Part shown: positions 5,313 to 20,503 of the stretch, piece after piece
Numbering within the stretch: position 1 is the first letter of the stretch
Layout: every line of letters starts with the position of its first letter
Assembly (NCBI GenBank): GCA_965200925.1
Contig: OZ241738.1
Coordinates: 491,891-555,890, forward strand
Source of the DNA: Alphaproteobacteria bacterium
GTDB lineage: Bacteria > Pseudomonadota > Alphaproteobacteria > UBA828
DNA length: 64,000 nt
Reading direction: 5' to 3'
Notes under the pieces: generated by a model
What the model was told of the DNA's origin: nothing
What the model saw: the letters and a program-made list of their open reading frames with translations, nothing else
Databases searched by the model: none
Program-made: the position numbers and the translations under genes

Positions 5313-5480
5313 ATATGGCCTGTCGTTGACGGAGCACCGGCGCCGTGGTAGCGACCAGCCGCCATGCACGGTCAGGCCGCATGTTCCTTTCGCCTCTCGC
5401 CGGACGCCGAGTCCCGCGCCGGGGCCGAAACGGCCGGCTTCCGCCTTGGGGCCAAAGGCACGCACACCAGCCGCACGATC

Positions 5481-6173
5481 ATGCTGGCGGAGCTGGAGGC
5501 GGTCCTGGCAGCGGCCGGTGCGGACGCCGCGCGGGCCGACTACGCGGCGGCGATCATTGAGACCAACTGTTTGTCGAAGCCTACCGCGGCGACGCGCCGG
5601 CTCTCGTGCCAGCGGCTGCGCGAGCTCCACGGGCTGGACCCGGCGCTGCCGCTGTTCCGCGTGCTCCGGCGCCTCTGGGCCTTCGATCCGGCGGGCCGCC
5701 CGCTTCTGGCCTTGCTGTCGGCGCTCGCTCGGGATCCGCTGCTTGCCGCCACCGTTCCCGCGATCGTGTCCCTGCCGCCCGGCGCCGATTTCCAGCGTGC
5801 GCCGATGAAGGCCGCGCTGCGGAGCGCCGTGGGCGAGCGCCTGAATGAGGCGGTCCTCGACAAGACCTGCCGCAACGCGGCCAGCAGCTGGACGCAATCG
5901 GGGCATCTCGAAGGGCGGACGTTCAAGAAGCGGCGGCGGGTCACGGCCTCCACGGCGGCCGTCGCCTTCGCCCTCTGGCTCGCCGGCGCCGCAGGCTGTC
6001 GCGGCGCTGGCGTCTTCGTCTCGGCGTGGCTGCGGCTGGCCGATTGCGGTCCCTCGCGGGCGCGCCGCCTGGCCCTGGAAGCGAAGCGGCTCGGCCTGAT
6101 CGACCTCCGGATGGCCGGCGATGTCGTCGAGCTCGACACGGCCCGGCTCGACCCCGCCGGAAGAGGGGTGTGA
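5481..6173 (+). CDS. brxA: BREX protein BrxA (DUF1819-like)
   Basis: First gene of a co-directional operon followed by BrxB and BrxC. Size ~230 aa; start ATG 5481 inside ORF 5364..6173. Assignment rests mainly on position and size. Confidence 0.55.
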   Translation: MLAELEAVLAAAGADAARADYAAAIIETNCLSKPTAATRRLSCQRLRELHGLDPALPLFRVLRRLWAFDPAGRPLLALLSALARDPLLAATVPAIVSLPPGADFQRAPMKAALRSAVGERLNEAVLDKTCRNAASSWTQSGHLEGRTFKKRRRVTASTAAVAFALWLAGAAGCRGAGVFVSAWLRLADCGPSRARRLALEAKRLGLIDLRMAGDVVELDTARLDPAGRGV

Positions 6174-6739
6174 CCGTGTCGCGCATCGAGGACCTCGCGG
6201 AAGCCTACGGCCGGCATATTGCGACGCCCTGGCAGCGGACGGTCGCCGGCGCCCAGCGTGTCGTGATGGTCGTCTACGACAAGGAGCAGGAGCGGATGCT
6301 GCGCGCCCGCAGGCTCGCCTTCGAGACCGCGACAAAGCGGGCCGGATACGCTTGGCTGGAGGTCGATCTGGCGCCGGCTTTCGCCGAATGGATGGCCGGC
6401 GACGAATACCGGGAGGCGTATTTCGCGACGCCCGAGGATCTGCGGCTGAAGCTCGACGCCGCGTTCCCGGACCATGTGGCCGGCCGCATCCGCGAGCGGC
6501 TGACTTCGGCGGACGCCACGGAGGCTTCCGTCGTCGCGGTCTTCGGCGCGGGCGCGCTCTTCGGCCTCGCGCGGGTCTCGCGAATCCTCGGCATGGTCGA
6601 GAGCGATATCCGCGGCCACCTCGTCCTTTTCTTCCCGGGTCAGTACGAACGGAACAACTACCGCTTGCTGGACGCGCGCGACGGCTGGAACTATCTCGCC
6701 GTGCCGATCACGCTGCGTGGCGCGGAGGAGCACGGATGA
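6170..6739 (+). CDS. brxB: BREX protein BrxB (DUF1788-like)
   Basis: ~190 aa. GTG 6170 overlaps the brxA stop (GTGA). Immediately precedes BrxC, whose ATG overlaps its stop (ATGA). Confidence 0.6.
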   Translation: MTVSRIEDLAEAYGRHIATPWQRTVAGAQRVVMVVYDKEQERMLRARRLAFETATKRAGYAWLEVDLAPAFAEWMAGDEYREAYFATPEDLRLKLDAAFPDHVAGRIRERLTSADATEASVVAVFGAGALFGLARVSRILGMVESDIRGHLVLFFPGQYERNNYRLLDARDGWNYLAVPITLRGAEEHG

Positions 6740-9700
6740 AGATCAAGGACGTCCTCCAGCGCGATCCTGCGGCGCACCCCCTCGTCAACAAGGGCCAGGC
6801 CCGGATCGCCGACCGCGAGGACGCGCAGGTGATGCGGGAGCTGCACGGCGAGCTCGCGACCTTCGTCTGCGAGGGCCAATATGCGGACGGCATCCAGAGG
6901 ATCGTCCGTTCGTTCCTCGACGATCTGGGCCGGACCAGCCAGCGCGGCGCCTGGGTCAGCGGCTTCTTCGGCAGCGGCAAGTCGCACCTCCTGAAGATGC
7001 TCTGCCACCTGTGGCGCAACACCGAATTCCCCGACGGGGCGACGGCGCGCAGCCTGGTTCCCGCGATCCCCGAAGATCTGGCCGCGCTGCTGCGCGAGCT
7101 CGACGTCGCCGCCCGGCGCGCCGGCGGCCTCATGGCCGCGGCCGGTTCGCTGCCCAGCGGCAGCACCGACCACGTGCGCCTCACCATCCTCGGGCTGCTG
7201 CTGCGCGCCGCCGGCCTGCCGGCGCAGTACCCCCAGGCCCGGTTCTGCCTGTGGCTGCACGCCGAGGGGCGCTTCGACGCCGTGAAATCCGCGGTCGAAG
7301 CGGAGGGCCGGCGCTTCGAGCGGGAGCTCAATGACCTCTATGTGAGCGGCGCGATCGCCCGCGCCGTCCTCGCCTGTGCCCCGTCCTTCGCGGCCGGCGA
7401 AGCCGAGGCCAGGCAAGCGATCAGGGCGCAATTCCCGCCCCAGGCCGCCGACATCGCGACGGCGGAGTTCCTGCGCACGGCCAAGGACGCCCTGGCGCAT
7501 GCTTCCGATAGTGAGGGCCGGGTGCCGTGCACACTCGTCGTGCTCGACGAAGTGCAGCAATATATCGGCGATTCGACCGAGCGTTCCATGCTCGTCACCG
7601 AAGTCGCGGAAGCCGTCGAAAAGCAGCTCGATAGCCACGTGATGATCGTCGGCGCGGGCCAGAGCGCGTTGACCGACGCGCCGCTCCTCCAGAAGCTGAT
7701 GGACCGCTTCACGATCCGCGTCCCGCTCTCCGACGCCGACGTGGAGACGGTCACCCGCAAGGTGCTGCTCCAGAAGAAACCCAGCGCCGTCGCCGCTCTG
7801 CGCGCGCTGCTCGAAAGGCACGGCGGCGAGATCTCGCGGCAACTCCAGGGGACCCGGCTGGGCGAGACCGCTGCGGACCGCGTGGCCCTTGCGGACGACT
7901 ACCCGCTGCTGCCGGTCCGCCGGCGTTTCTGGGACGCCTGCTTCCGCCAGATCGACGCGGCCGGCACCCACAGCCAGTTGCGTTCGCAGCTGCGCATCGT
8001 CCACGACGCCCTGGCCAGACTCTCCGACCGGCCGCTCGGCGCGGTCGTCGCCGGCGACGAACTGTTCGATGCGCTCGCGCCCGAGATGGTCAACACCGGC
8101 GTGCTGCTGCGGGAGATCAACGAACGGATCATCGAGGTCGGCGAGGCCGAAGGCGCGCTCGCGCGCCGCCTCTGCGGGCTGATCTTCCTGATCGGCAGGC
8201 TGGCGCGGGAGGCGGGAGCGGATACCGGCGTCCGGGCGACCGCAGACCACCTCGCCGATCTGGTCATCGACGATCTCGCCGCCGACAACGGCAAGCTCCG
8301 CAGCGCGGTCGAAACGACGCTCGGCAAGCTCGCCGGCAACGGCATCCTGATGCGGGTGGGCGAGGAATACCGCCTTCAGACCCGCCAGGGCGCCGAATGG
8401 GATCGGGAGTTCCGCAATCGGCAGACCCGCCTGAACAACGATTCCGCCGCGATCCAGCTTCGGCGCGACGCGCTTCTCCACGGAGAGATCGACAGGATCG
8501 TCCGCGGTCTGCGCATGGTCCAGGGGGCGGCGAAGGAACCCCGGCGCTTCGCCGTTCACCGGGGGGCGTCCCCGCCGCCCGCCGCCGACGGTTCCACGAT
8601 CCCGGTCTGGGTCCGCGACGGCTGGGCGGCGTCGGAGAAGGCGGCGGTGGAGGCGGCGCGGGCGGCGGGCGCCGCCGACCCGACGATTCACGTCTTCGTG
8701 CCCCGTCGTTCGGCGGACGATCTGCGCCGCCTGATCGTCGAGGCGGCCGCGGCCGAACAGGCGCTCGACGCGCGCGGCAACCCGACCGAGCCCGAAGGCC
8801 AGGAGGCGCGCCGGAGCATGGAGAGCCGTCGCGCCCGCGCCGAGGCCGGGCGCGACGCTCTGGTCCGCGACGTCGCCGCCAACGCCAAGGTCTTCCAGGG
8901 CGGCGGCAACGAGGTCCTTCTCGCGGCGCTGGAAGACCGCCTCCGGGCCGCCGGCGAGGACGCGCTCGCGCGCCTGTTCCCCCGCTTCAGGGAAGCCGAT
9001 GGCGCGGCGTGGCCGTCCGTCATCAAGCGTGCGCGTGACGGCGCCGACCACCCGCTCCAGCCGGTCGGGCACACGGACGCGGTGGAAAAGCACGCGGTCT
9101 GCCGGCAGGCGCTTGCCGAGATCGGCGTCGGCGCGTCCGGGGCCGCGTTGCGCAAGGCGCTGGCCGGCCCGCCCTTCGGTTGGCCGCGCGACGCCGTGGA
9201 CGCGGCGCTGATCGCGCTGCATCGCGCGCGGCATCTGTCCGCGACGCTGAACGGCGCGGCGCTCCCGCCAGGCGGGCTCGACCAGAACCGCATCGCGAAG
9301 GCGGCGTTCCGCGCCGAGCGCGCGGCCCTCTCGGTTCAGGATCGCTTGGTCCTGCGGAAGCTCTTCCAGGCCGCCGATCTTGCCTGCAAGAGTGGCGAGG
9401 AGGAAGCCCGGGCGAATGATTTCCTGGACACGCTTGCCGAACTCGCCCGTTCGGCCGGCGGTGAACCGCCGCTTCCCGTCCCGCCCGGTACGGTCGACGT
9501 CGAGGACGCGCGCCGGCTGGCCGGGAACGAACGGCTGGCGGCCATCCGCGACAAGGCCGACGAATGGGAAGGGAAGATCGCCGAGTGGCGCGCGGCGGCG
9601 AAGTCGATCGCCGCGCGTCTGCCGGCATGGCGCCTGGTCGAGCGGCTGGCGGCGCATGCCGAAGGGATCGAAGAGGCCGGGCCGCAGCGCCGCGAGGTGG

Positions 9701-10191
9701 CGGCGGTGCGCGACGGGCGGCAATTGCTGGCGGGCGCGGATCCGGCCGCCGCCATCCGCAAGGCGCTGGCGGACCTTCTCCGCGCTTCCGTCCGGGCCGG
9801 GTTCGAGGCCCTTGAGGCCGCCTTCGCCGAGGCCATGCGGACTCTCGACGCGAACGAAGCATGGCGAAAAGCCGCGCCCGCCGACCGCGAGGCGATCCTG
9901 AAAGAGGCGGGGCTGGCCGCACCGGCGAAGCCGGAGGTCGCGACCGACGAAGCCCTGGCCGACTGCCTCGACCGGCGCTCCCTTGCGGGCGTCCGCGCCG
10001 AGATCGACGCCGTCCCGGCACGCGCGGCCCGTGCCGTCGAGCGGGCGGCCCGGCTGCTGGAACCGAAGGTCCGCCCGGTCGCCCTGGAGCGGGCCACCTT
10101 GCGCGACGCCGCCGAGGTCGAGGCGTGGGCCGAGCGCCAGAAGAAGGCGCTGCTCGAAGCCGTCGCCGACGGCCCGGTGCTGGTGAATTGA
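6736..10191 (+). CDS. brxC: BREX P-loop ATPase BrxC/PglY (~1150 aa)
   Basis: MKIKDVLQRDP... N-terminus with Walker A GFFGSGKSHLLKMLCHLW. Large size and position between BrxB and PglX. Confidence 0.85.
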   Translation: MKIKDVLQRDPAAHPLVNKGQARIADREDAQVMRELHGELATFVCEGQYADGIQRIVRSFLDDLGRTSQRGAWVSGFFGSGKSHLLKMLCHLWRNTEFPDGATARSLVPAIPEDLAALLRELDVAARRAGGLMAAAGSLPSGSTDHVRLTILGLLLRAAGLPAQYPQARFCLWLHAEGRFDAVKSAVEAEGRRFERELNDLYVSGAIARAVLACAPSFAAGEAEARQAIRAQFPPQAADIATAEFLRTAKDALAHASDSEGRVPCTLVVLDEVQQYIGDSTERSMLVTEVAEAVEKQLDSHVMIVGAGQSALTDAPLLQKLMDRFTIRVPLSDADVETVTRKVLLQKKPSAVAALRALLERHGGEISRQLQGTRLGETAADRVALADDYPLLPVRRRFWDACFRQIDAAGTHSQLRSQLRIVHDALARLSDRPLGAVVAGDELFDALAPEMVNTGVLLREINERIIEVGEAEGALARRLCGLIFLIGRLAREAGADTGVRATADHLADLVIDDLAADNGKLRSAVETTLGKLAGNGILMRVGEEYRLQTRQGAEWDREFRNRQTRLNNDSAAIQLRRDALLHGEIDRIVRGLRMVQGAAKEPRRFAVHRGASPPPAADGSTIPVWVRDGWAASEKAAVEAARAAGAADPTIHVFVPRRSADDLRRLIVEAAAAEQALDARGNPTEPEGQEARRSMESRRARAEAGRDALVRDVAANAKVFQGGGNEVLLAALEDRLRAAGEDALARLFPRFREADGAAWPSVIKRARDGADHPLQPVGHTDAVEKHAVCRQALAEIGVGASGAALRKALAGPPFGWPRDAVDAALIALHRARHLSATLNGAALPPGGLDQNRIAKAAFRAERAALSVQDRLVLRKLFQAADLACKSGEEEARANDFLDTLAELARSAGGEPPLPVPPGTVDVEDARRLAGNERLAAIRDKADEWEGKIAEWRAAAKSIAARLPAWRLVERLAAHAEGIEEAGPQRREVAAVRDGRQLLAGADPAAAIRKALADLLRASVRAGFEALEAAFAEAMRTLDANEAWRKAAPADREAILKEAGLAAPAKPEVATDEALADCLDRRSLAGVRAEIDAVPARAARAVERAARLLEPKVRPVALERATLRDAAEVEAWAERQKKALLEAVADGPVLVN

Positions 10192-10203
10192 GGAGATACC
10201 GCA

Positions 10204-11403
10204 ATGTCCTTCATCCGCCGTATCGGCCTGCGCGGCCTGCTGTCGTTTCCGCCCGACATGGAGCCGTTCGATTTCCAGCCGCTGAACGTGCTGATCGGCC
10301 CCAACGGCTCCGGGAAGACGAACCTGATCGAGGCGCTGGAGCTTCTCCGCGCGACGCCAACGGATTTCGCCGCCGCGATCCGCGATGGCGGCGGCGCGGC
10401 GGAATGGTTGTGGAAAGGCGAGAATCCAGCGAGGGCGGCGACGGTAGACATCGAGACCGGAGACTCGACGCCATCGACCGGCCGGCCGTTGCGCTATCTT
10501 CTCCAATTCACGTCGTCGAATAGCCGGGTCGAGGTGCTCGACGAAGCGATCGAGGAAGTGAAGCCCGACATTGGACATGACGAACCGTATTTCTATTATC
10601 ACTTCCAGCAGGGACGACCGGCCATTAACGTCAAAGAGACAACGGAAGGTGGTTCTGGTGGACATGTGGAAAGGCGCCTCAAGCGAGACGACATTTTGCC
10701 GGATCAGTCTGTCCTGATGCAACGCAAGGAACCGGATCTCTACCCGGAAGTCGCTTGGATCGGGCGCATGTTCGGGCAAATCCAGACGTTCCGCGACTGG
10801 ACCTTCGGGCGTTATGCTCCATTAAGGCAGCCACAACCTGCGGATCTGCCGGAGGATCGACTGCTGCCCGATAATCGCAACTTAGCCTTGCTTCTCAATC
10901 AAGTCGAACACCGTGATCCTCGGCGGTTCAACGAACTCCTTAAGCGATTCTTCCCACGTTTTGAACGGATGTCGACCAGGATCTCCGGCGGCACGGTGCA
11001 ATTCTATCTGCATGAGTCCGGTTTCGAGTCACCGATCCCCCCGACACGGCTGTCGGATGGGACGGTGCGCTTTGTCGCTATCCTCGCGACCCTGCTGGCG
11101 CCGTCGCCGTCGCCGCTCGTATGCATTGAAGAACCGGAGCTCGGGCTGCACCCCGACGCGCTGACGCTGGTTGCCGAGCTTCTGGTAGAGGCATCCGAGC
11201 GTATGCAACTTGTGGTCACCACGCATTCGGATGCACTTGTCTCCGCGTTGACGAACCAACCGGAATCTGTCGTTGTTTGCGAGCGGCCGGGTGCGGGTAC
11301 CGTGCTGGAACGACTCGATCCCGAAAAGTTGGCGCACTGGTTGAACGAGGATTATGGGCTTGGCGACTTGTGGCGTATCGGAAAACTGGGCGCCAATCCA
11401 TGA
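10204..11403 (+). CDS. ABC-type ATPase (AAA_21/AAA_15-like; OLD/AriA/PtuA-like N-terminal ATPase), module 1
   Basis: Walker A LIGPNGSGKTNLIEALELL. Walker B/D-loop LVCIEEPELGLHPDA. H-loop VVTTHS. 399 aa. Confidence 0.75.
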   Translation: MSFIRRIGLRGLLSFPPDMEPFDFQPLNVLIGPNGSGKTNLIEALELLRATPTDFAAAIRDGGGAAEWLWKGENPARAATVDIETGDSTPSTGRPLRYLLQFTSSNSRVEVLDEAIEEVKPDIGHDEPYFYYHFQQGRPAINVKETTEGGSGGHVERRLKRDDILPDQSVLMQRKEPDLYPEVAWIGRMFGQIQTFRDWTFGRYAPLRQPQPADLPEDRLLPDNRNLALLLNQVEHRDPRRFNELLKRFFPRFERMSTRISGGTVQFYLHESGFESPIPPTRLSDGTVRFVAILATLLAPSPSPLVCIEEPELGLHPDALTLVAELLVEASERMQLVVTTHSDALVSALTNQPESVVVCERPGAGTVLERLDPEKLAHWLNEDYGLGDLWRIGKLGANP

Positions 11404-12011
11404 GTTCCGTCGAAATCTATATGGAGGGGGGAGGGGATCATCGAAATGGTAAGGAACGTCTTCGTCTCGGTATGGATGCGTTTCTTAGCGAGATGAAGGG
11501 CATGGCCAGGTCCCGGTCGACCCGCTGGAGACTCGTTCTTTGTGGTGGGCGGAACCAGGCATATCGGGCGTTTGTGGAAGCGTGTCGGAGCGACCGGGAC
11601 AGCATCTTCGTGCTGCTGGTCGATTCGGAAGGTCCCGTAAATTCCTCGCCGCGCGCCCATCTGGCCGCGGACGGGTGGGACCTGGACGGAGTGGACGAAG
11701 ACCGGGTTCATCTGATGGTCCAGACGATGGAAACCTGGATCGTCGCCGACCCCGAGGCCCTTGCCGCCTATTACAGGCAGAGCTTTCGAGCGAACGCTCT
11801 CCCGGCGGCGGACGACCTGGAAACGGTCGCCAAGAACGAGGTCGCCAGTGCCCTGGACCGGGCGACCGAGCAGACGCAGAAAGGCCGCTACCACAAGATC
11901 CACCACGCCGCCGACCTCCTCGCGTGCATCGACCCGGCGAAGGCGCGGGCGCGCTGCCGCCATTGCGAGCGCCTGTTCGCCACCCTCGACGCGGCCGTCG
12001 CGGCGGGGTGA
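11400..12011 (+). CDS. Small TOPRIM-like partner protein (DUF4276-like; alternatively DUF4435/AriB-like), module 1
   Basis: ATG 11400 overlaps the ATPase stop (ATGA). ~203 aa. N-terminal EIYMEGGGD (conserved Glu) and LLVDSEG (acidic motif) are consistent with TOPRIM/OLD-nuclease-like small partners of AAA_21 ATPases. Confidence 0.55.
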   Translation: MSSVEIYMEGGGDHRNGKERLRLGMDAFLSEMKGMARSRSTRWRLVLCGGRNQAYRAFVEACRSDRDSIFVLLVDSEGPVNSSPRAHLAADGWDLDGVDEDRVHLMVQTMETWIVADPEALAAYYRQSFRANALPAADDLETVAKNEVASALDRATEQTQKGRYHKIHHAADLLACIDPAKARARCRHCERLFATLDAAVAAG

Positions 12012-12100
12012 GGCGATGAGCGCGCTTTCGCGGGAATCGCGCCGGGCGCTGGAGAGGGCCGTCCGCAAGGCCCGCGCCGCCGCCGAAGCGGGCGCGGGCA
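11984..12100. repeat. ~117-bp direct duplication, copy A, spanning the DUF4276-1 3' end and the first 28 codons of pglX (near-identical copy B at 14003-14119)
   Basis: gcggccgtcgcggcggggtgaggcgatgagcgcgctttcgcgggaatcgcgccgggcgctggagagggccgtccgcaaggcccgcgccgccgccga is identical in both copies, then 2 mismatches and divergence after gggcaag. Confidence 0.85.
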
Positions 12101-12132
12101 AGATGAAGTTGGGGGGAGGGGAGGAGAGATGA
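12016..12132 (+). pseudogene. pglX 5' stub (MSALSRESRRALERAVRKARAAAEAGAGK + 9 unrelated codons); insertion scar
   Basis: Translation is identical to the first 28 residues of full-length PglX at 14025. Terminates after KLGGGEER; its stop overlaps the ATPase-2 start (ATGA). Confidence 0.7.
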
Positions 12133-13355
12133 ACATGACCGACGAACAGCTTGCTGGCGTTCCGCGGATCGAGCGTTTGAAGGTGCGGAATTTTCGGGTG
12201 TTGAAAGACGTCGATATAAGGGATTTGACGCCTTTGACGGTGCTGCTTGGACCGAACGGGAGCGGCAAAACCACCTTGTTCGACGTGTTCGCGTTCCTCT
12301 CCGAATCCTTCGAGGACGGCCTGAGGCGCGCCTGGGATCGACGCGGGCGGGCCAGAGAGCTCAAGACCCGTGGCGCCAAAGGCCCGGTCATCGTCGAACT
12401 CAAATACCGCGAGCGACCGGGCACACCGCTTATCACCTATCACCTGGAGGTGGACGAGCATGATGGCGCGCCCAGTGTCGTCCGTGAATGGCTATGGTGG
12501 AAACGGCACAGCTATGGACGCCCGTTTCGTTTTCTCGAATACCGAAATGGCGGAGGCACAGCGATCAGCGGCGAACAACCCGATGTCGAGGAGGATAGAA
12601 TCCCAATTCCTCTCAAGTCTCCCGACCTGCTGGCGGTCAACACGCTTGGGCAGCTCCGGGAGCATCCGCGCGTGGCCGCGCTGCGCGACTTCATTATGAA
12701 CTGGCACGTATCCTACCTTTCCGTGGATGACGCGCGCGGGCATCCGGAAGCGGGCCCCGAGAAGTGGTTGACCAGGACCGGCGATAATCTCGCCAACGTG
12801 ATTCAGTATCTGAAGGAGAATCATCCGAAGCGGTTGAAGAGGATATTCAAATTATTGGGGCGGCGGGTGCCGCATGTCGAGAAGGTTCGCGCTGAAACCA
12901 TGCCGGACGGGCGACTGCTTCTGCAAATCAAGGACGCGCCGTTCGATCATCCGGTTCAGGCGCGCTTCGCTTCCCATGGAACGCTCAAGATGCTGGCCTA
13001 TCTGGTGTTGCTGCATGACCGGAATCCGTCGCCGTTCATCGGTATCGAGGAACCGGAGAATTTCCTGCATCCGAGGCTACTTCCCGAATTGGCGGAAGAA
13101 TGCCGCGCGGCCAGCGCGCGCACGCAACTGCTCGTCACGACGCACTCCCCGTTTTTTCTGAACGCGCTTCGCCCCGAGGAAGTCCGCGTTTTGTGGCGCG
13201 ACGAAACCGGCCACGCGCAGGTCGAGCAGACCTCTGGTCTCGAGGGAGTGGCGGAGTTCATGGATAACGGGGCGCTGCTCGGGCAGCTGTGGGCAGAAGG
13301 GCAGTTCGGCGTCGGCGATCCACTGGTCCGTCGCGGCGGAGGACGCCGCCGATGA
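12129..13355 (+). CDS. ABC-type ATPase (AAA_21-like), module 2, diverged paralogue of the 10204 gene
   Basis: RIERLKVRNFRVLKDVDI...LTVLLGPNGSGKTTLFDVFAFL (Walker A). FIGIEEPENFLHP (Walker B). LVTTHSPFF (H-loop). 408 aa. Confidence 0.75.
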   Translation: MNMTDEQLAGVPRIERLKVRNFRVLKDVDIRDLTPLTVLLGPNGSGKTTLFDVFAFLSESFEDGLRRAWDRRGRARELKTRGAKGPVIVELKYRERPGTPLITYHLEVDEHDGAPSVVREWLWWKRHSYGRPFRFLEYRNGGGTAISGEQPDVEEDRIPIPLKSPDLLAVNTLGQLREHPRVAALRDFIMNWHVSYLSVDDARGHPEAGPEKWLTRTGDNLANVIQYLKENHPKRLKRIFKLLGRRVPHVEKVRAETMPDGRLLLQIKDAPFDHPVQARFASHGTLKMLAYLVLLHDRNPSPFIGIEEPENFLHPRLLPELAEECRAASARTQLLVTTHSPFFLNALRPEEVRVLWRDETGHAQVEQTSGLEGVAEFMDNGALLGQLWAEGQFGVGDPLVRRGGGRRR

Positions 13356-13969
13356 CGTCGGCGCGCCATTTTATATTTCTTGTCGAGGAACCATCCATGG
13401 AGGCGTTTCTCCAGGCGCTCGTTCCACGTATTCTTCCCGATTGCGAGTGCGACATTCGACTGTTTCAGGGGAAACGGGATACGATGAAAAATCTACCGAA
13501 CCGTCTTCGCGCTTATAGCCGCTGGCTGCCCGAAAATTGGCGTATCGTCGTGATGGTCGATCGCGACAACGACGATTGCCGGCTGCTCAAGGCGCAGCTG
13601 GAAAAGGCAGCTGCCGAGTCGCGGCTACGCACGCGCGCGCAATCCGGCGGCGCTTGTTGGCAGGTCGTCAACCGCATCGTGATCGAAGAACTGGAGGCTT
13701 GGTATTTCGGAGACTGGGACGCCGTTCGGCGCGCCTACCCAAAGGTTCCCGATACGATTCCGGGGAAAGCTAAATACCGGAACCCGGACGAGATACACGG
13801 CGGAACGTGGGAAGCATTCGAGCGTGTCCTTCAGAAGCACGGGTATTTCAAGGGTGGGCTACGCAAGATCGAGGCCGCGTGCGCCATCGCCCCGCACGTC
13901 GATCCAGGGCGCAACCGGTCGCCGAGTTTCGCGGCGTTTCGCGATGCACTCGTCGAGGCGGCTGCCTGA
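13352..13969 (+). CDS. Small TOPRIM-like partner protein (DUF4276-like), module 2
   Basis: ATG 13352 overlaps the ATPase-2 stop. ~205 aa. FIFLVEEPSMEAF (conserved Glu) and VMVDRDNDD (DxD) are typical of TOPRIM. Confidence 0.55.
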   Translation: MTSARHFIFLVEEPSMEAFLQALVPRILPDCECDIRLFQGKRDTMKNLPNRLRAYSRWLPENWRIVVMVDRDNDDCRLLKAQLEKAAAESRLRTRAQSGGACWQVVNRIVIEELEAWYFGDWDAVRRAYPKVPDTIPGKAKYRNPDEIHGGTWEAFERVLQKHGYFKGGLRKIEAACAIAPHVDPGRNRSPSFAAFRDALVEAAA

Positions 13970-14002
13970 CGATGGCGATTGGGAAGAAATGCTGGCGGCG
14001 CG

Positions 14003-14119
14003 GCCGTCGCGGCGGGGTGAGGCGATGAGCGCGCTTTCGCGGGAATCGCGCCGGGCGCTGGAGAGGGCCGTCCGCAAGGCCCGCGCCGCCGCCGAGGCGG
14101 GTGCGGGCAAGGCGCTGGA
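14003..14119. repeat. ~117-bp direct duplication, copy B (covers the start of functional pglX)
   Basis: See copy A at 11984-12100. Confidence 0.85.
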
Positions 14120-17100
14120 AAGCCTCGCGGTCGGCCGCCGCGAACCTTGGGAGTCGATGACGCCGGACGGCCGCGCGCTGCGCAACCGGCTGCGCGCCCA
14201 CGGGCGGCATCTCGGCGACCGGCGCGACCCCCGGAGCGGCACACAGGCGAGCGGCCGGCTGATGCGGGAATGCGCCTACGAGCACTGGCACCGGATGCTG
14301 TTCGCCCGCTTCCTCGCCGAGGCCGGCCTGCTGATCGAGCCGGAAACCGGCGTCGCCGTCACCCTCGCCGAGGCGAAGGAGCTCGCCCGCGCCACCGGCG
14401 ACCGACCACTGGCCACCGGCGACCGACCACTGGCCACCGGCGACCGACCACTGGCCACCGGCGACCGACCACTGGCCACCGGCGACCGACCACTGGCCAC
14501 CGGCGACCGACCACTGGCCACCGGCGACCGACCACTGGCCACCGGCGACCGATCACTGGCCACCGGCGACCGACCACACGACTGGCTGGCGCTGGCCGGC
14601 GCCTGGGCCGGGCGGATGCTGCCGCAGATCTTCCGCGCCGGCGACCCGGTTCTCGACGTCGCCTTGCCGCCGGAAACGCGGGCCGACCTCGAAGCGCTGC
14701 TGGAGGGGCTGCCGCGCGCGACCTTCCTCGCCGACGACAGCCTCGGCTGGGTCTACCAATTCTGGCAGGCGGACAGGAAGGAGGCGGTCAACCGCTCCGG
14801 CGTCAAGATCGGCGCCGACGAGCTCCCGGCCGTCACCCAGCTCTTCACCGAGGATTACATGGTCCTGTTCCTGCTCCACAACACGCTGGGCGCGTGGTGG
14901 GCGGGCAAGGTGCTGGCGGCGCGCCCCGGCCTCGCGCAATCGGCCGGAAGCGAGGAGGAACTGCGCGAAGCCTGCAAGGTCGGCGCCGTGGAGTGGCGCT
15001 ATCTGCGCTTCGTCCGCGCGGAGGGGGAAGATGGCGCACCCGGCCCGTGGCGCCCGGCGGCGGGCGCGTATCCCGGCTGGCCGCGCGCGGCGAAGGACGT
15101 GACGCTGTGCGACCCGTGCATGGGTTCGGGGCATTTCCTGGTCTTCGCCCTGCCGATCCTCGCCGCGTTGCGCATGGCGGAGGAGGGGCTTTCGCGGGAG
15201 GCGGCGACGGACGCCGTGTTGCGCGACAACCTCTTCGGCCTGGAGATCGACCCGCGCTGCACGCAGATCGCCGCCTTCACCCTCGCCTTCGCCGCGTGGC
15301 GCATGGCGGGATACCGCTCGCTGCCGGCGCTGAACCTCGCCTGTTCCGGCCGCGCCGTCGGCGCGTCGAAGGCGGAATGGCGGCGGCTGGCGGAGAGGGC
15401 CGCCGCGGCCGCCGACCCGGCCGCCGCCCGCGACCCGCTCGGCGCGGAGGAGACCTTGCGCGCGGCCGGCGTCGAAGAGCGCGTGAAGAACGGGCTCGAG
15501 GCGCTGCACGAATTGTTCGCCCAGGCGCCGGCGCTCGGCAGCCTGATCGACCCGCGCCGGGTGAGCGGCGACATCCTGACCGCGGATTTCGAGGCGCTGG
15601 AGTCGTTGCTGGGCGTGGTTCTCAAGGCGGCGGAGAACGACAGTGAGACCGCGGAGATGGCCGTCGCCGCGCAGGGCATGGCGAAGGCGGCGGAACTCCT
15701 GGGGCGGCGCTTCACGCTGGTGGTGACGAACGTGCCCTTCCTCGGGCGCGGCAAGCAGGACAGGGTGTTGCAGGACCATCTGGCGGTGCATTTCGACGAC
15801 GCGAAGCGCGATCTCGCCACCGCCATGCTTCGCCGCCTGCTGGGCTTCGCGGATACGGGCGGGGTGGTCGCCGCCGTTACGTCGCAGAATTGGCTGTTCC
15901 TGAAGTCCTACGCGAAGCTGCGCAAGCGCGTGTTGCGGGAAACGACATTGAACGTCGTCGCCGCGCTCGGGCCACGCGCGTTCGAGACCATCAGCGGCGA
16001 GGTCGTGAATACCGCCCTGGTAACACTCACCGCCACCTCGCCGCCAAGCGATGCGGCCTTTGCTAGCCTGGACACCAACGACGGTGCGGATGCGGCCGCG
16101 AAAGCGCGGGCGCTGTCGCAGGGGGAGCTATCGCTGCCGGCGCAGGCGGCGCAGAACGCGAATCCGGTTTCTAACCCTGATCTTGTTATTGGATATGAAA
16201 GCAAAGAAGGAACTCAAACCCTTGATAGCGTAAGTTATTGCTATCAGGGCTTGGCGACCAGCGATAATTCCCAATTTGTTATCAACTTTTGGGAACTTGC
16301 AAGGATTTCTGGTGGCTGGGAACCATTCCAAATGACATCCGATGGGACATCAACCTTGAGCGGATGCTCTTGGATAATCCATTGGGAGAACGGCGAAGGT
16401 CGTTATGCACGACATGCGAAGGCTCTAAAAAAGGCAGGAAGGCTTGGAGGATGGAAATCAGGCCATGAGGCTTGGGGGAAGGTTGGCGTCGCAGTCAACA
16501 GAATGAAAGATCTTCCATGTTCTCCATATTTCGGTACAATGTTCGATTGTAATGTTGCTGTTATTATACCTGACGATCCTGAAGATTTCTCGTGGATTTG
16601 GGCACAGGTTCGGACTTCTGAGTATTCAAAAGAGGTTCGTCGACTGAACCGGAATGTTAGTGTGGCCAATCTGACGTTGATCAGGGTGCCGATTGATGAA
16701 AAAATTCGTAGAGCCGATTCATTTCCTAACTTGAGCGCAGCGCAGTGCCCCAACCCGACGCAATGGCTGTTCGACGGACACCCCGCCCGCGCGGACGCAC
16801 CGCTGCAGGTCGCCGCCGCCCGCCTGTGCGGCTATCGCTGGCCACGCCAGACCGGCTCCAGCTTCATGGATTGCCCAACCGTCGGCCCCGACGGGCTCGA
16901 GCGCCACGCGGACGCCGACGGCATCGTCTGCCTCGCCGCCATCGCCGGCGAGGCCCCGGCGCACGAACGGCTGGCCGCGCTGCTCACCGACGCCTTCGGC
17001 CCCGATTGGTCGGCGGCCCGGTTCGCCGGCCTGCTCGCCGAGGCGGGCTTCGCCGGCAAGAGCCTCGACGACTGGCTCCGCGACGGCTTCTTCGCCCAGC

Positions 17101-17735
17101 ACTGCAAGCTGTTCCGCCACCGCCCCTTCGTCTGGCACGTCTGGGACGGCCGCCGCGACGGCTTCCACGCGCTGGTCAACTGCCACCGCCTCGCCGCGCC
17201 CGGCGGCGAAGGCCGGCGCACGCTGGAGAAGCTGATCTGGTCCTGTCTCGGCGCCTGGATCGACCGCCAGCGGGCCGAACGGGACGCGGAAACCGAAGGC
17301 GCCGACGCCCGCCTCGCCCACGCCGAACACCTGCGCGCCGAACTCGTCAAGGTCCTCGAAGGCACGCCGCCCTACGACCTCTTCGCCCGCTGGAAGCCGC
17401 TCCACGAACAACCCCTCGGCTGGGAGCCGGACGCGAACGACGGCGTGCGCGTCAACATCCGCCCCTTCATGACCGCCCGCCCCCTCGCCGCCAGGGCAAG
17501 GAACGCTTGCATCCTGCGCACGACGCCCAACATCCACTGGCGCAAGGACCGCGGCAAGGAGCCCCGGCGGGAGAAGGCCGACCACCCCTGGTTCTGGAGC
17601 CGCAACCCGGACGACCCTGCCCACGAAGTCGATTTCCCCGGTGGCGCGGATTTCGACGGCAACCGCTGGAACGATCTGCACTACACTCGCGCCGCCAAAG
17701 AAGCCGCGCGGGCGGCGGAAGGAGAAGGCCGATGA
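14025..17735 (+). CDS. pglX: BREX adenine-specific DNA methyltransferase PglX (~1236 aa)
   Basis: N6-adenine MTase motifs DPCMGSGHFLVFA and VVTNVPFLG. Size and position. ATG 14025 chosen inside ORF 13824..17735. Confidence 0.85.
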   Translation: MSALSRESRRALERAVRKARAAAEAGAGKALESLAVGRREPWESMTPDGRALRNRLRAHGRHLGDRRDPRSGTQASGRLMRECAYEHWHRMLFARFLAEAGLLIEPETGVAVTLAEAKELARATGDRPLATGDRPLATGDRPLATGDRPLATGDRPLATGDRPLATGDRPLATGDRSLATGDRPHDWLALAGAWAGRMLPQIFRAGDPVLDVALPPETRADLEALLEGLPRATFLADDSLGWVYQFWQADRKEAVNRSGVKIGADELPAVTQLFTEDYMVLFLLHNTLGAWWAGKVLAARPGLAQSAGSEEELREACKVGAVEWRYLRFVRAEGEDGAPGPWRPAAGAYPGWPRAAKDVTLCDPCMGSGHFLVFALPILAALRMAEEGLSREAATDAVLRDNLFGLEIDPRCTQIAAFTLAFAAWRMAGYRSLPALNLACSGRAVGASKAEWRRLAERAAAAADPAAARDPLGAEETLRAAGVEERVKNGLEALHELFAQAPALGSLIDPRRVSGDILTADFEALESLLGVVLKAAENDSETAEMAVAAQGMAKAAELLGRRFTLVVTNVPFLGRGKQDRVLQDHLAVHFDDAKRDLATAMLRRLLGFADTGGVVAAVTSQNWLFLKSYAKLRKRVLRETTLNVVAALGPRAFETISGEVVNTALVTLTATSPPSDAAFASLDTNDGADAAAKARALSQGELSLPAQAAQNANPVSNPDLVIGYESKEGTQTLDSVSYCYQGLATSDNSQFVINFWELARISGGWEPFQMTSDGTSTLSGCSWIIHWENGEGRYARHAKALKKAGRLGGWKSGHEAWGKVGVAVNRMKDLPCSPYFGTMFDCNVAVIIPDDPEDFSWIWAQVRTSEYSKEVRRLNRNVSVANLTLIRVPIDEKIRRADSFPNLSAAQCPNPTQWLFDGHPARADAPLQVAAARLCGYRWPRQTGSSFMDCPTVGPDGLERHADADGIVCLAAIAGEAPAHERLAALLTDAFGPDWSAARFAGLLAEAGFAGKSLDDWLRDGFFAQHCKLFRHRPFVWHVWDGRRDGFHALVNCHRLAAPGGEGRRTLEKLIWSCLGAWIDRQRAERDAETEGADARLAHAEHLRAELVKVLEGTPPYDLFARWKPLHEQPLGWEPDANDGVRVNIRPFMTARPLAARARNACILRTTPNIHWRKDRGKEPRREKADHPWFWSRNPDDPAHEVDFPGGADFDGNRWNDLHYTRAAKEAARAAEGEGR
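14391..14577 (+). repeat. In-frame 21-bp tandem repeat (gccaccggcgaccgaccactg, ~8.9 copies) encoding (ATGDRPL)n within pglX
   Basis: Eight perfect or near-perfect copies from 14391 (copy 8 carries a C>T giving P>S) plus a partial ninth. Translation ATGDRPL x7, ATGDRSL, ATGDRPHDW. Confidence 0.9.
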
Positions 17736-20494
17736 CCTTCCAACGACAGGCCACGGAAAAGTGGCGTAACGAAGTCCCCGGCGCGCGCTGGTTCAAGGCC
17801 GACCTGCACGTCCATACCATCGACGACCACGCCGGCCGGGCGAAAATGCCGGACGGCCTGTCGGGCGATCCGGCGGACCCACAGACGCTGGAGGACTACG
17901 CGCGGCGCTTTCTCCGGGCCGTCGTGGAACGCGGCGTGCAGGTCGTCGGGCTGACGCCGCATTCGCCGCGCGCGGGGGACGGCTCGGACACGAGCGCCGT
18001 CTGGCGCATCGTCGAGGAGTGGAACGAAGGAACCGACGACGACGGCATCCCGTTCCGGAAGAAGATATACGCCGTGTTCCCCGGATTCGAACCGTCGCTC
18101 CGGGAGGGAAAAGAAGGCTTGCATCTCCTGTTTCTGTTCGATCCCGAAATCGGCCGCGATCGTTATCTGAGAGTCTTCGATCTTGTTATGGGCGGCGTTT
18201 CGCCTTGGCAAGGCGGAACCTTGCAGATCTCCGGCAAGCGTGCGGACCAAGCTTTCGACGATTTGAAGAATTTCCGGGAGCGTGAACACTCCGTCGGCGA
18301 GGGTTGGAATTCTCTTGTCCTCGCCCCCCATATCGACGCCGACAAGGGTTTGCTCGGCACGCAGAAAGCCCAGGTTCTGCAACTCTTTGATCACGGAGCA
18401 ATCGCCGGTCTGGAACTCGGCGACGACAAGCTGCCGAAAGAAATTTTGCAGAACCGTCTGTGGCTCCGCGATGGAATGGAAACGCATCGTCAGGCGTTCT
18501 TCCACGCCAGCGACGCCTACGGTCCGGGCGACGTCGGCCGTCGCCATACGTGGATCAAGCTCGCGAGTCCGCGCATCGAAGCCCTGCGCCAAGCGTTCGT
18601 CGCCAGCGATTCGCGCGTGCGGATCGGCTTCGAGAAAGGCAGCGATGGCGCGCTCCGGCCGATCGACCATCCGCCCGCCGTTATATCCGGAAACCGCCCT
18701 TGGCTGAGAGAGGTGACGGTACGCGGCGGCGTTTCGTTCTTCGGCGGCCAGGAAGATGGTAAGCCGAGAGGGACCCGCTTCCGGCTGAATCCGGACCTGA
18801 CCTGCATCATCGGCGGCAGCATGACCGGCAAGAGCACCTTGCTCGACGGCCTGCGCTTGCATGTCGGTGCGCCGTTGCCCTCCAACGAGGCGGTCCGCAG
18901 GCAGGTCGAAACCCGGGGCCGGAACGTTTTCGCCGCCGGTTCGCCCGAGGTTGCGCTCGACTGCCCTGGCCAGGACCCCACTGCACCACCGTTGGAACGG
19001 TGGCCCGCCCGGTTCTTCGCCCAGAACGAATTGCAGCGCCTCTCCCAAGAGAGCGCGGCCGCTGAAGACATTCTTGCGCGCCTGATTCCGTCCGAAATAG
19101 AAGGAATCGATGGGCGCGGCGCCGAGTTGAAACGCCTCGACAAGCGCCTCGCCGATCTGGCCAGGCAGCTCGCGAAACTCGATGAAACCGTCGGGGAAGC
19201 GGAGCAGGATTGTCAACGCACCGGCGACGCGAAAGTGGCGCTCGCCGCCTTTTCCGAAGCCGGCGTGGACGATCTCCACCAAGCCAGCCGTGAGCGGCGG
19301 GCCTGGGAATCGACGGCGAGCACCGTTCAGACGGCTCTCCGAGGTCCTGTCAGGGAAATCGTTCGAGCCGCGCGGGAAATCGACTTGCCGCCCGTGGGCG
19401 GGAAGCAGGTGGAGATTCCGTCAGAGAATTCGGTCGATTGGCGAAAGCTGGATCTGGACGGAAGACAACGCCGGATCGTCGAACGCCTGGAAGCCGTGTC
19501 GCAAGAGGCGGAGAAATGGATCGCTGACATTCTCGACGTCTCCTTGAAAATGGGCAAACGCGAGGCCGCCGTTCGTATCGAAGTGGAGCGAGCTCTTGCC
19601 GCCCGCGGATACGACGCCGGGACACTCAAGGAGATTCAGCAACTCACACGCCAAGCATCGCTGTTTCCCAATTACGCGGCGCATCGCGACGATACGCGCC
19701 GCCGACTCGCGGCGGACGAGAAGGCGTTCGGCGACTCGTCGAAGGAGCGCCGTGCTCTCGTCGAAGAGCAGCGACGGGCCTTCGCGCGCGTTGCCCAAGG
19801 CGTGAACCGGGAATTCGGAGGCCGGATCCGTGTGCACCGGATTGACGACGCCGACACCCGGACTCTCGACGATTTCTTGAGAGGGCTACGGCAAAAGGGC
19901 GTGACGCGCTGGTGGAACGACTTCGACCCGACGAAGAAACCCTCGCCCGACAGGCTGGTCGCGTGCCTCGCCGCTGGTTCCCTCGCCGAAGTCGGCATGA
20001 GCGATGCCGTCCAGGAAAGGTTCCGCGAGAGCGTCACCAAGTCGAAGCGGCGTGAGTTGGCCGCGCTGCGGTGCCCGGACCGTTACGTTCTCGAACTGCG
20101 GATGGACGACGGTTCCTACCGCCCTCTGGACGATCTTTCTGGAGGCCAACGAGTCAGCGTTCTTCTCTCCCTTCTTCTGGAAACCGAAGATGCCCGCCCG
20201 CTGGTGATCGACCAACCCGAGGACGAACTCGACAACCGGTTTCTGTCGGAAACGGTCCTCCCGGCACTGAAGAAACTGCGCGGTCGGCGGCAAGTCATCG
20301 TCGCGACGCACAAGGCGGAGATCGTCGTCAATGGAGACCCCGACATGGTGATCCTTCTCGACGCGACGGCCCACCACGGGCGCGTGGCATGCGCCGGCGC
20401 GATCGAGGAACCGGCCGTTCGCGACGCCATCGTGCGCACTGTGGACGGCGGGGAGGAAGCATTCCGTCTTCGACGGCGGAAATACGGATTCTGA
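17732..20494 (+). CDS. PHP-domain phosphoesterase fused to an SbcC/RecF-like ABC ATPase (920 aa); nested accessory gene between pglX and pglZ
   Basis: N-terminal PHP motifs: FKADLHVHTIDDHAG, LTPHSP, APHIDADKG. RecF/SbcC-like N-lobe with Walker A: LTCIIGGSMTGKSTLLDGLRL. Long coiled-coil-like middle region. ABC signature and Walker B/D-loop: LSGGQRVSVLLSLLLE...LVIDQPEDELD. ATG overlaps the pglX stop. Confidence 0.7.
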   Translation: MTFQRQATEKWRNEVPGARWFKADLHVHTIDDHAGRAKMPDGLSGDPADPQTLEDYARRFLRAVVERGVQVVGLTPHSPRAGDGSDTSAVWRIVEEWNEGTDDDGIPFRKKIYAVFPGFEPSLREGKEGLHLLFLFDPEIGRDRYLRVFDLVMGGVSPWQGGTLQISGKRADQAFDDLKNFREREHSVGEGWNSLVLAPHIDADKGLLGTQKAQVLQLFDHGAIAGLELGDDKLPKEILQNRLWLRDGMETHRQAFFHASDAYGPGDVGRRHTWIKLASPRIEALRQAFVASDSRVRIGFEKGSDGALRPIDHPPAVISGNRPWLREVTVRGGVSFFGGQEDGKPRGTRFRLNPDLTCIIGGSMTGKSTLLDGLRLHVGAPLPSNEAVRRQVETRGRNVFAAGSPEVALDCPGQDPTAPPLERWPARFFAQNELQRLSQESAAAEDILARLIPSEIEGIDGRGAELKRLDKRLADLARQLAKLDETVGEAEQDCQRTGDAKVALAAFSEAGVDDLHQASRERRAWESTASTVQTALRGPVREIVRAAREIDLPPVGGKQVEIPSENSVDWRKLDLDGRQRRIVERLEAVSQEAEKWIADILDVSLKMGKREAAVRIEVERALAARGYDAGTLKEIQQLTRQASLFPNYAAHRDDTRRRLAADEKAFGDSSKERRALVEEQRRAFARVAQGVNREFGGRIRVHRIDDADTRTLDDFLRGLRQKGVTRWWNDFDPTKKPSPDRLVACLAAGSLAEVGMSDAVQERFRESVTKSKRRELAALRCPDRYVLELRMDDGSYRPLDDLSGGQRVSVLLSLLLETEDARPLVIDQPEDELDNRFLSETVLPALKKLRGRRQVIVATHKAEIVVNGDPDMVILLDATAHHGRVACAGAIEEPAVRDAIVRTVDGGEEAFRLRRRKYGF

Positions 20495-20503
20495 GGCGCG
20501 GCG

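Follow-up and report, generated by a model that had tools for sequence, protein, structure and literature searches.

A two-gene ATPase-DUF4276 cassette between direct copies of the pglX 5' end in a type 1 BREX operon: a probable insertion with long target duplication

We analysed a 64,000-nucleotide (nt) stretch of contig OZ241738.1, called the window below, which carries a complete type 1 BREX (bacteriophage exclusion) operon. Coordinates are positions in the window, on the forward strand, and L-numbers denote the comparison loci that we fetched. Gene assignments were made by Pfam and PADLOC profile searches, and PADLOC placed brxA, brxB, brxC, pglX, pglZ and brxL, all co-oriented on the + strand, between 5364 and 26081 (Table 1). 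The interval between brxC and pglX holds two gene pairs, each consisting of an ABC ATPase gene and a DUF4276 gene: module 1 (M1, 10204-12011) and module 2 (M2, 12129-13969). M2 lies between two nearly identical copies of a sequence that joins the end of the M1 DUF4276 gene (DUF4276-1) to the start of pglX.

Each module is an adjacent HEC-01A and HEC-01B pair, the arrangement by which HEC-01 is recognised, and in both the start of the DUF4276 gene overlaps the stop of the ATPase gene (ATGA). M1 and M2 belong to separate HEC-01 subfamilies, and in tblastn searches the ATPase queries reached each other's homologues at only 25-30% identity, so the two modules are not recent duplicates of each other. 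The guanine-plus-cytosine content of both is 60-64% vs 68-72% in brxC and pglX, a base composition that appears foreign. Thousands of homologues of the M2 ATPase (ATPase-2) exceed 70% identity. Exact-protein look-ups with DUF4276-1, DUF4276-2 and the protein P0121 returned no record, and a sequence search of the PDB with DUF4276-2 gave no meaningful match. Viral contigs contained just two distant homologues (63-64%), and a plasmid search yielded one homologue at 73%, located in a type I restriction-modification (R-M) locus, with all others below 42%. DUF4276 has been placed in the Toprim superfamily as a putative nuclease (PMC12065111). Pairs of an ABC ATPase and a DUF4276/Toprim protein are OLD/PARIS-like ATPase-nuclease defence modules (PMC12065111, PMC11464382, bioRxiv 10.1101/2024.01.29.577857). 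The last of these, Payne et al. 2024, the one published test of HEC-01, reports zero protection by it against the phages tested there, and a defence function of HEC-01 is presumed.

A repeat search revealed one two-copy direct repeat of 116 nt (11987-12102 and 13996-14111, 97% identical, spacing 2009). Base-by-base comparison at offset 2009 defined a core, 11990-12102 and 13999-14111, with 111 of 113 positions identical; the two mismatches, A/G at 12087 and C/T at 12093, are both synonymous third positions in the pglX frame. When the 64-kb window was searched for a 60-nt piece of the repeat, there were exactly two occurrences, and 100 shuffles gave none. Among the 20 largest repeat families listed for the 9-kb surroundings, there was no other non-tandem repeat longer than 44 nt, and the longest ones were well below this identity. 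The repeat opens with the final base of DUF4276-1 codon 238, runs through codons 239-244 and the TGA stop of that gene, crosses the 4-nt spacer GGCG and closes with pglX codons 1-29; its breakpoints lie at -26/-29 and +87 relative to the pglX ATG. An earlier note on this DNA had reported such a duplication, and it is real. The first interval given there (11984-12100) is right to within 3 nt, but the second (14003-14119) is shifted by about 8 nt and implies an offset of 2019 instead of 2009. The note had named the two gene ends correctly, but counted about 8 and 28 codons where there are 6 plus the stop and 29. It had also described a pglX stub of 38 codons whose stop overlaps the start of ATPase-2; this stub is present, but it ends in MKLGGGEER and a stop, the M having been omitted from the reported tail KLGGGEER.

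The order repeat-M2-repeat (R-M2-R) was found in at least six independent metagenome assemblies, namely in L081, L082, L172, L178 and L179 and in part in L083/L084, where the left junction is covered. The closest ATPase-2 homologue (P0001; 94% in BLASTP, 95.8% in a global alignment) is encoded on independent ENA, JGI and Logan contigs. L081, a 196-kb scaffold about 98% identical to the window over the BREX backbone, is arranged brxC-M1-R-M2-R-pglX; both copies of the repeat are there, and the junction is identical to that of the window. The independent contigs have their own single-nucleotide polymorphisms (SNPs), including differences between the two repeat copies. The check for an assembly duplication that the earlier note had called for was therefore passed. 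A collapsed or looped repeat might account for a short contig, L172, that, in the manner of a de Bruijn loop, returns from copy 2 to the cassette leader; we regard the chance that the structure is such an artefact as negligible, as both junctions are present not only in the window but also in ENA, JGI and Logan assemblies that are independent and have their own SNPs (L081, L082, L178, L179 and L083/84), and a diverged version exists in L087.

The empty site was found in L088-L091 through homologues of the M1 ATPase (ATPase-1) at 83-85% identity. In these loci, whose BrxC is 85% identical in amino acids to that of the window, the order is brxC (1151 aa, the orthologue length also seen in L081), ATPase (398/399), DUF4276 (204/208), TGA GGCG GTG and pglX, with neither M2 nor a stub. 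They are colinear with a single repeat copy, to which they are 88-93% identical over 97 nt (-19 to +78). The proposal that M2 is an insertion into an ancestral order brxC-ATPase1-DUF4276_1-pglX is thus supported, as this order exists uninterrupted. Two of its qualifiers need correction: the insertion is not precisely at the pglX start, given the breakpoints above, and the event is neither private to this genome nor recent in it, because the occupied structure is common to lineages that differ by 2-28% in BrxC. An M1-like pair between brxC and pglX also occurs in the more distant BREX loci L007, L010 and L044, and in most of 80 PglX relatives brxC abuts pglX. A scan of species-representative genomes with PglX found no relative above 59% identity; it gave a survey of the brxC-pglX spacing and no empty site. 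None of the 22 surveyed loci with inserts between brxC and pglX had a stub of the pglX 5' end.

A diverged occupied site is seen in L087 (BrxC 72% identical to that of the window), which has the same topology: an M1-type pair, a stub equivalent, M2 (ATPase 83%, DUF4276 86%) and pglX. Window positions 11952-14199 align contiguously with L087 7793-10062 at 81.6% identity, including the short leader and trailer that flank the two M2 genes. The leader is 100% conserved in L081-L084. A closer M2 relative outside BREX, L085/L086 (87%), has only 12125-13969, the two open reading frames (ORFs), in common with the window; homology begins at 12125 and does not extend to the leader. Because the homology to L087 includes leader and trailer, unlike that to L085/L086, the BREX-embedded M2 of the window and that of L087 descend from one insertion event.

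The topology [module-R][module-R] is also what a tandem duplication from the ATPase-1 start to pglX codon 29 would leave, with the second module later replaced by M2 or diverged into it. Both modules are HEC-01 pairs with the same ATGA overlap, and allelic replacement of M1 does occur at this locus (see below). Nonetheless, we consider this origin very unlikely. The modules match different subfamily models (PDLC04177/04201 vs PDLC04182/04202) and cross-match poorly, whereas the repeats are 98% identical. Copy 2 keeps just 26-29 nt of the DUF4276-1 tail, directly behind the M2 stop and trailer, and cassettes that are free-standing or lie within type I R-M loci elsewhere share 72-87% identity with M2. 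A second illegitimate event would also be needed, with both breakpoints within the duplicated module.

Table 1. Features of the BREX locus in the window, and flanking repeats of related M2 cassettes in other loci
Feature	Locus	Position	Strand	Description
BrxA	window	5364-6173	+	PADLOC, 306 bits
BrxB	window	~6176-6739	+	PADLOC, 242 bits
brxC	window	6736-10191	+	PADLOC BrxC PDLC02489, 1392 bits; profile 1-1145 begins at aa 206 of ORF 6121-10191
Module 1 ATPase (ATPase-1)	window	10204-11403	+	HEC-01A-type ABC ATPase; Pfam AAA_21 3.4e-39; PADLOC HEC-01A PDLC04177, 510 bits
Module 1 DUF4276 (DUF4276-1)	window	11400-12011	+	HEC-01B, Toprim superfamily; Pfam DUF4276 3.6e-21; PADLOC HEC-01B PDLC04201, 230 bits, profile 1-199/202
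Repeat copy 1 (R1)	window	11990-12102	+	DUF4276-1 tail and stop, GGCG, pglX codons 1-29; reaches 11987 with one mismatch
Stub ORF	window	12016-12132	+	38 codons and stop, MSALSRESRRALERAVRKARAAAEAGAGK then MKLGGGEER and stop; 29 pglX codons fused to 9 cassette-leader codons
Cassette leader	window	12103-12128	+	26 nt, ATGAAGTTGGGGGGAGGGGAGGAGAG; strong Shine-Dalgarno sequence for ATPase-2; left junction between 12102 and 12103
Module 2 ATPase (ATPase-2)	window	12129-13355	+	HEC-01A-type ABC ATPase; Pfam AAA_21 3.2e-31; PADLOC HEC-01A PDLC04182, 512 bits
Module 2 DUF4276 (DUF4276-2)	window	13352-13969	+	HEC-01B, Toprim superfamily; Pfam DUF4276 1.1e-34, full profile; PADLOC HEC-01B PDLC04202, 282 bits
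Cassette trailer	window	13970-13998	+	~26-29 nt; homology with the trailer of L087 but none with that of L086
Mini-ORF	window	13972-14028	+	18 codons, MAIGKKCWRRGRRGGVRR then stop; ATG 2 nt past the DUF4276-2 stop; TGA overlaps the pglX ATG (ATGA, 14025-14028)
Repeat copy 2 (R2)	window	13999-14111	+	non-coding relic of the DUF4276-1 tail and true pglX 5' end; reaches 13996
pglX	window	14025-17735	+	BREX methyltransferase; intact, 1236 aa; PADLOC PglX PDLC02528, 1377 bits; Pfam Eco57I / N6_Mtase
PglZ	window	~21703-24030	+	PADLOC, 899 bits
BrxL	window	~24033-26081	+	PADLOC, 944 bits
Flanking repeat	L128	4686-4824 / 6856-6994		139 nt, 97%
Flanking repeat	L132	129-267 / 2341-2479		139 nt, 95%
Flanking repeat	L143	4758-4806 / 6845-6893		49 nt, 94%
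Flanking repeat	L166	2135-2183 / 4207-4255		49 nt, 82%

Transposons have terminal inverted repeats and a transposase, the att sites of integrases are specific sequences adjoining an integrase gene, and an integron cassette ends in attC, an imperfect palindrome of about 57-141 bp at its 3' end, and inserts at attI next to intI. Searches of the inserted genes against Pfam gave AAA_21 and DUF4276 domains only, with no transposase, integrase or recombinase domain, and the M2 insert has no terminal inverted repeats and no att-like site. No integrase was found among the genes of the BREX locus, to which the Pfam and PADLOC scan was limited. The 26-29-nt trailer is too short for attC and contains no palindrome. 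As with transposon and att (Campbell-type) duplications, M2 lies between direct target copies, and recombination between the copies can remove the insert precisely; unlike in those cases, it has no transposase, inverted repeats, integrase gene or specific att sequence. A DNA transposon or insertion sequence also fits poorly with a duplication of 113 nt here and of 49-139 nt in other members of the cassette family. Transposon target duplications are typically shorter than 10 bp and at most 19-26 bp (IS1630; PMC2853133).

Long target duplications of this kind have been described for R-M genes by Furuta, Abe and Kobayashi (2010, NAR 38:2428; PMC2853133), who looked for direct repeats of more than 30 bp, present only once at the empty site, around an insert of less than 20 kb without mobile-element genes. 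Their repeats ranged from 46 to about 420 bp and flanked R-M genes of all types, with no mobility genes; a link to double-strand breakage was suspected, and the units were proposed to go through a cycle in which they insert, are amplified by way of the repeats and are released (PMC2853133). For such insertions that paper cites Nobusato et al. 2000 (ref. 37 in PMC2853133). At our locus, the direct repeats are 113-116 nt long and 97-98% identical, a related empty site with a single copy and both flanks aligned exists in L088-L091, and the insert is 1.89 kb long, is free of mobile-element genes and is bounded by a repeat that occurs twice in the window. The M2 scar is an instance of insertion with long target duplication; the kind of event was already known for R-M genes, and the cargo and target are new. 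What had been called a rare readable footprint of cassette shuffling is indeed a footprint, but a good example rather than a new principle.

Like the R-M cases, M2 is a defence unit of a few kilobases between direct repeats that are single at the empty site, without transposase, integrase or inverted repeats, and the repeat length is variable (49-139 bp here). Unlike them, its cargo is an OLD-like ABC ATPase and Toprim (HEC-01) pair, which lacks homologues of R and M genes and is outside the original definition of the R-M events, its target is part of another defence operon and straddles a gene boundary, such that a stub ORF was made and the downstream gene stays translatable, and its repeats show concerted evolution across diverged lineages. 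The mechanism is equally unproven for the R-M cases and for the M2 scar. Several surveys describe HEC-01 and other ABC ATPase-TOPRIM pairs that lie within Hma, BREX, DISARM and type I R-M operons (Payne et al. 2024, bioRxiv 10.1101/2024.01.29.577857; for OLD-ABC/TOPRIM modules linked to BREX, PMC12839542; for PARIS AriA/AriB, PMC11464382). As far as we read them, these surveys catalogue which genes are embedded, not how, and the word 'duplication' is absent from the HEC paper (bioRxiv 10.1101/2024.01.29.577857). M1 and M2 resemble these embedded pairs in matching the HEC-01A/B models (230-512 bits) inside BREX, and the M2 family lies mostly after hsdS; unlike the surveyed cases, the window has two HEC-01 subfamilies in tandem.

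We examined the surroundings of the M2 cassette family in 80 metagenome loci with ATPase-2 relatives (68-74% identity), none of which had a BREX neighbour like that of the window. For the 64 loci with enough flank, the 400 nt upstream were compared with the 400 nt downstream. Long flanking direct repeats were present in four of them, with scores of 127 (L128), 121 (L132), 40 (L143) and 26 (L166), whereas the remaining loci, 64 inverted-orientation controls and 186 permuted pairs all scored 13 or less. The four duplicated targets are mutually unrelated: three are the 3' ends of a glycosyltransferase/deacetylase gene, an FtsX-like gene and hsdS, and that of L132 is part of an unknown ORF on the opposite strand. 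In most loci of the family the cassette directly follows a conserved hsdS C-terminus (...LRDTLLPKLISGELRV...) and is embedded in type I R-M, as on the Meiothermus taiwanensis plasmid NZ_CP021131.1 (hsdM-DUF262-hsdS-DUF4433-macro-ATPase-DUF4276-hsdR). A stretch of 50-80 nt upstream that is common to many loci of the family was considered as a conserved leader marking the ends of a mobile element, and turned out to be this hsdS C-terminus. The leaders and trailers proper show no conservation from one context to another, and their lengths vary between 22 and about 160 nt.

The repeated occurrence of flanking direct repeats is what would be expected if the cassette encoded its own mobility or were moved site-specifically, as a transposon-, integron- or integrase-type cassette with an att-like repeat, and DUF4276, as a Toprim-fold putative nuclease, could in principle nick DNA (PMC12065111). 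We find such mobility highly improbable. The insert has no recombinase or transposase domain, no inverted repeats and too short a trailer for attC, and the sequences duplicated around members of the family (the pglX 5' end, the three gene ends just named and the unknown ORF; 49-139 nt) are unrelated to one another. Neither the leaders nor the trailers are conserved, and the one segment that appeared to be belongs to hsdS.

Instead, we think that M2 probably entered as a foreign two-gene cassette by recombinase-independent, illegitimate insertion that duplicated 113-116 bp of its target. The starting point would have been a type 1 BREX operon of the order brxC-ATPase1-DUF4276_1-pglX. A cassette of 1.89 kb, consisting of an OLD-like ABC ATPase gene and a DUF4276/Toprim gene with a 26-nt leader and a 26-29-nt trailer, would have inserted illegitimately, and the duplicated part of the target would begin 26-29 nt upstream of the pglX ATG and end with codon 29. 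Because the target was duplicated and not cut, nothing would have been lost. In the downstream copy, pglX would stay complete and retain the translation-initiation region native to it. The upstream copy would give rise to the 38-codon stub, which runs from the old pglX start through the cassette leader to an ATGA overlap with ATPase-2, and the trailer together with the start of copy 2 would form the 18-codon mini-ORF, with its own ATGA overlap with pglX. The result is the unbroken chain of abutting ORFs that is seen, DUF4276-1, stub, ATPase-2, DUF4276-2, mini-ORF and pglX, and the repeat copies would later have been homogenised by gene conversion.

The spacing of the ORFs bears on how the newcomer could be translated. 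From DUF4276-1 through pglX every gene boundary overlaps or leaves a gap of no more than 4 nt. The DUF4276-1 stop is followed, after 4 nt, by the stub ATG, and the stub TGA (12130-12132) overlaps the ATPase-2 ATG (12129-12131). The stub is annotated as a 38-aa gene in L082, and its equivalent in L087 has 43 codons and the same ATGA overlap. The mini-ORF is retained with 18 codons in L081 and L172 and with 15 codons in L087, where a 9-nt length difference keeps the frame; both bridging ORFs are thus preserved in L081, L172 and L087. The L087 leader is 15 nt longer and its trailer 9 nt shorter than those of the window, both multiples of three. A promoter and terminator scan of 9900-14400 found no such site at the junctions; M2, without a promoter or terminator of its own, would therefore be expressed as part of the BREX operon. 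From this ORF geometry we infer that the scar may act as a pair of translational adaptors that couple M2 and pglX to the ribosome flow of the operon. A function for the stub peptide itself was also considered, and is unlikely, because its sequence drifts and non-synonymous changes accumulate.

The two repeat copies have changed together since the insertion. Over the first 60 coding nt, copies 1 and 2 of the window are identical (60/60) and those of L087 differ at one position (59/60), while window and L087 agree at only 47/60 positions for both copies (13 differences). At a GCG/GCA site both copies have G in the window and both have A in L081, and the pair is (A,G) in both L172 and L178. Because both copies carry the same lineage-specific substitutions, this pattern indicates that the copies were homogenised by gene conversion.

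M2 and its surroundings have diverged to different extents. Between the window and L087, identity beyond chance at four-fold sites is 0.72 and 0.58 for the two M2 genes vs 0.33 for brxC, 0.40 for pglX and 0.28 for M1; at synonymous sites, the divergence of M2 is thus about half that of the BREX backbone. This indicates that M2 is younger than the backbone and has been exchanged laterally between BREX loci. The empty-site loci L088-L091 are nearer the window/L081 pair than the occupied L087 is (BrxC 85% vs 72%). Two histories fit this: a precise loss of M2 in L088-L091, or its transfer from one BREX locus to another by homologous recombination. The repeats would offer 113 bp of homology for precise loss, for possible tandem amplification and for transfer between related BREX loci.

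Other parts of the locus also bear signs of exchange. In M1 (10200-11600) the window and L081 are only 58-80% identical in nucleotides against a backbone of about 98%; the ATPases are 76% identical in amino acids, with 41% identity at four-fold sites, and similarity returns in the 3' region of DUF4276-1. M1 is an exchanged allele. Within pglX, the presumed target-recognition part (15800-16800) is 45-74% identical between the two, which suggests a specificity-domain swap. Because M1 and the PglX target-recognition region diverge within a backbone of about 98%, the locus is recombinogenic.

These observations bear on where the insertion took place. If the primary event occurred in another BREX lineage, the window lineage could have gained the finished R-M2-R, or later swapped its M2 allele, by homologous recombination in the DUF4276-1/pglX flanks or in the repeats, and its scar would be a lateral inheritance. 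The lower divergence of M2 relative to brxC and pglX, the position of the empty loci nearer to the window than the occupied L087, and the mosaic state of the locus all point in this direction. On the other hand, stronger codon constraint on M2 is a possible partial cause of its lower divergence, and between lineages the repeats are only about 75-78% identical over about 100 nt, which would make them a poor RecA substrate if they were the sole arms. We treat secondary acquisition as a tentative alternative with an appreciable chance of being right; it would leave the nature and the first origin of the structure unchanged.

Several points weigh against illegitimate insertion with target duplication as set out above. 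M2 postdates the separation of the window and L087 backbones, and the window lineage may have received R-M2-R as a finished unit by homologous recombination. Of the two junctions, the right one alone is open to inspection, and its microhomology is imperfect and just 3-5 nt long (insert ...GGCGGCGC vs target ...CTCGACGC); the joining may have gone through staggered breaks, two-chromatid end joining or homology-facilitated illegitimate recombination. For L128, comparison with its best relative without M2, L177 (84% nucleotide identity), gave no clean empty site: the region is substituted, and copy 1 is followed by at least 26 nt of native downstream sequence. Translational coupling is the weakest step of the explanation. 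ATPase-2 has its own strong Shine-Dalgarno sequence, and the frame preservation in L087 rests on two indels (+15 nt and -9 nt), which would both keep the frame by chance in about 1 in 9 cases. The stub peptide differs by A3T and S8L in L172 and by S8L in L178, and in L087 it has diverged past codon 20.

A bolder proposal would make the cassettes agents of their own spread: HEC-01-type pairs would be self-mobilising selfish units whose own nuclease makes wide staggered breaks or provokes repair, so that they insert with a duplication of 50-140 bp. We hold this to be unlikely. If it were true, the duplicated arms would be portable homology for excision, tandem amplification and hopping between defence operons, and the process would be a general mechanism for the embedding of defence genes in BREX and type I R-M.

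According to the surveys, BREX, DISARM, Hma and type I R-M operons contain many embedded accessory defence genes; as far as we read them, they say little on how such genes enter without breaking the operon. The present locus documents the occupied, empty and diverged-occupied states of one cassette insertion. A duplication across a gene boundary would let the downstream core gene keep its start region while the newcomer inherits a translated entry point. The long-target-duplication mode is thereby extended from R-M to an OLD-like ATPase/Toprim cassette, with the same signature at four unrelated targets. What is added here to the R-M cases and the embedding surveys is a site in its empty and its diverged-occupied state, repeats that evolve in concert, evidence that a cassette moves between BREX loci and the recurrence of flanking repeats at unrelated sites. 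By implication, accessory immunity could be lost and gained through the repeats, cassettes might be amplified, and BREX loci could exchange them. Long direct repeats that span gene ends may also serve as a search image for dating and tracing the shuffling of defence genes.

Some further features of individual M2 copies were seen. In L172 (3950-4222), past the second repeat copy, the contig re-enters the cassette leader and the start of ATPase-2 (R-M2-R-M2...), and this second pass has L081-type SNPs; either the cassette has really been amplified in tandem by way of the repeats, or the assembler made a loop from mixed strains. In L178 (2029-2645) and L179 (1378-1994), DUF4276-2 was called as two pieces of 66 and 138 aa, reflecting either a frameshift, and thus cassette decay, or a sequencing error. 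The non-BREX cassette of L085 (11242-12881; ATPase 87%) lies downstream of a sulfatase gene; only residues 1-60 of its DUF4276 partner match, and a DDE transposase gene comes after it. The DUF4276 partner of L086 matches in two pieces, which suggests a frameshift.

The BREX islands with the empty site adjoin, within positions 1-3000 of L088-L091, an integrase or a TrwB/TraG-type coupling protein, plus a FitA/PIN toxin-antitoxin pair, which suggests that the whole island is carried on an integrative element. The interval between pglX and pglZ in the window (17732-21706) holds two further embedded genes, both also present in L081, L087 and L089-L091. One encodes a 920-aa protein with an ABC-ATPase C-terminus (PADLOC Ppl/Mad3-like), and the other a 400-aa protein whose L081 orthologue has Pfam SLFN_AlbA_2 and HATPase_c_4 domains.

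The N-terminal part of pglX (14391-14577) contains a 21-bp in-frame tandem repeat, GCCACCGGCGACCGACCACTG, encoding ATGDRPL, in 8.9 copies with 98% identity. L081 has 2 copies of it, L087 and L089 have one degenerate copy each, and in L178 the region coincides with a scaffold gap. Residues ~126-181 of PglX are absent from all 80 distant PglX relatives. The 21-bp unit is a variable-number repeat, which adds about 50 aa to PglX and keeps the frame.

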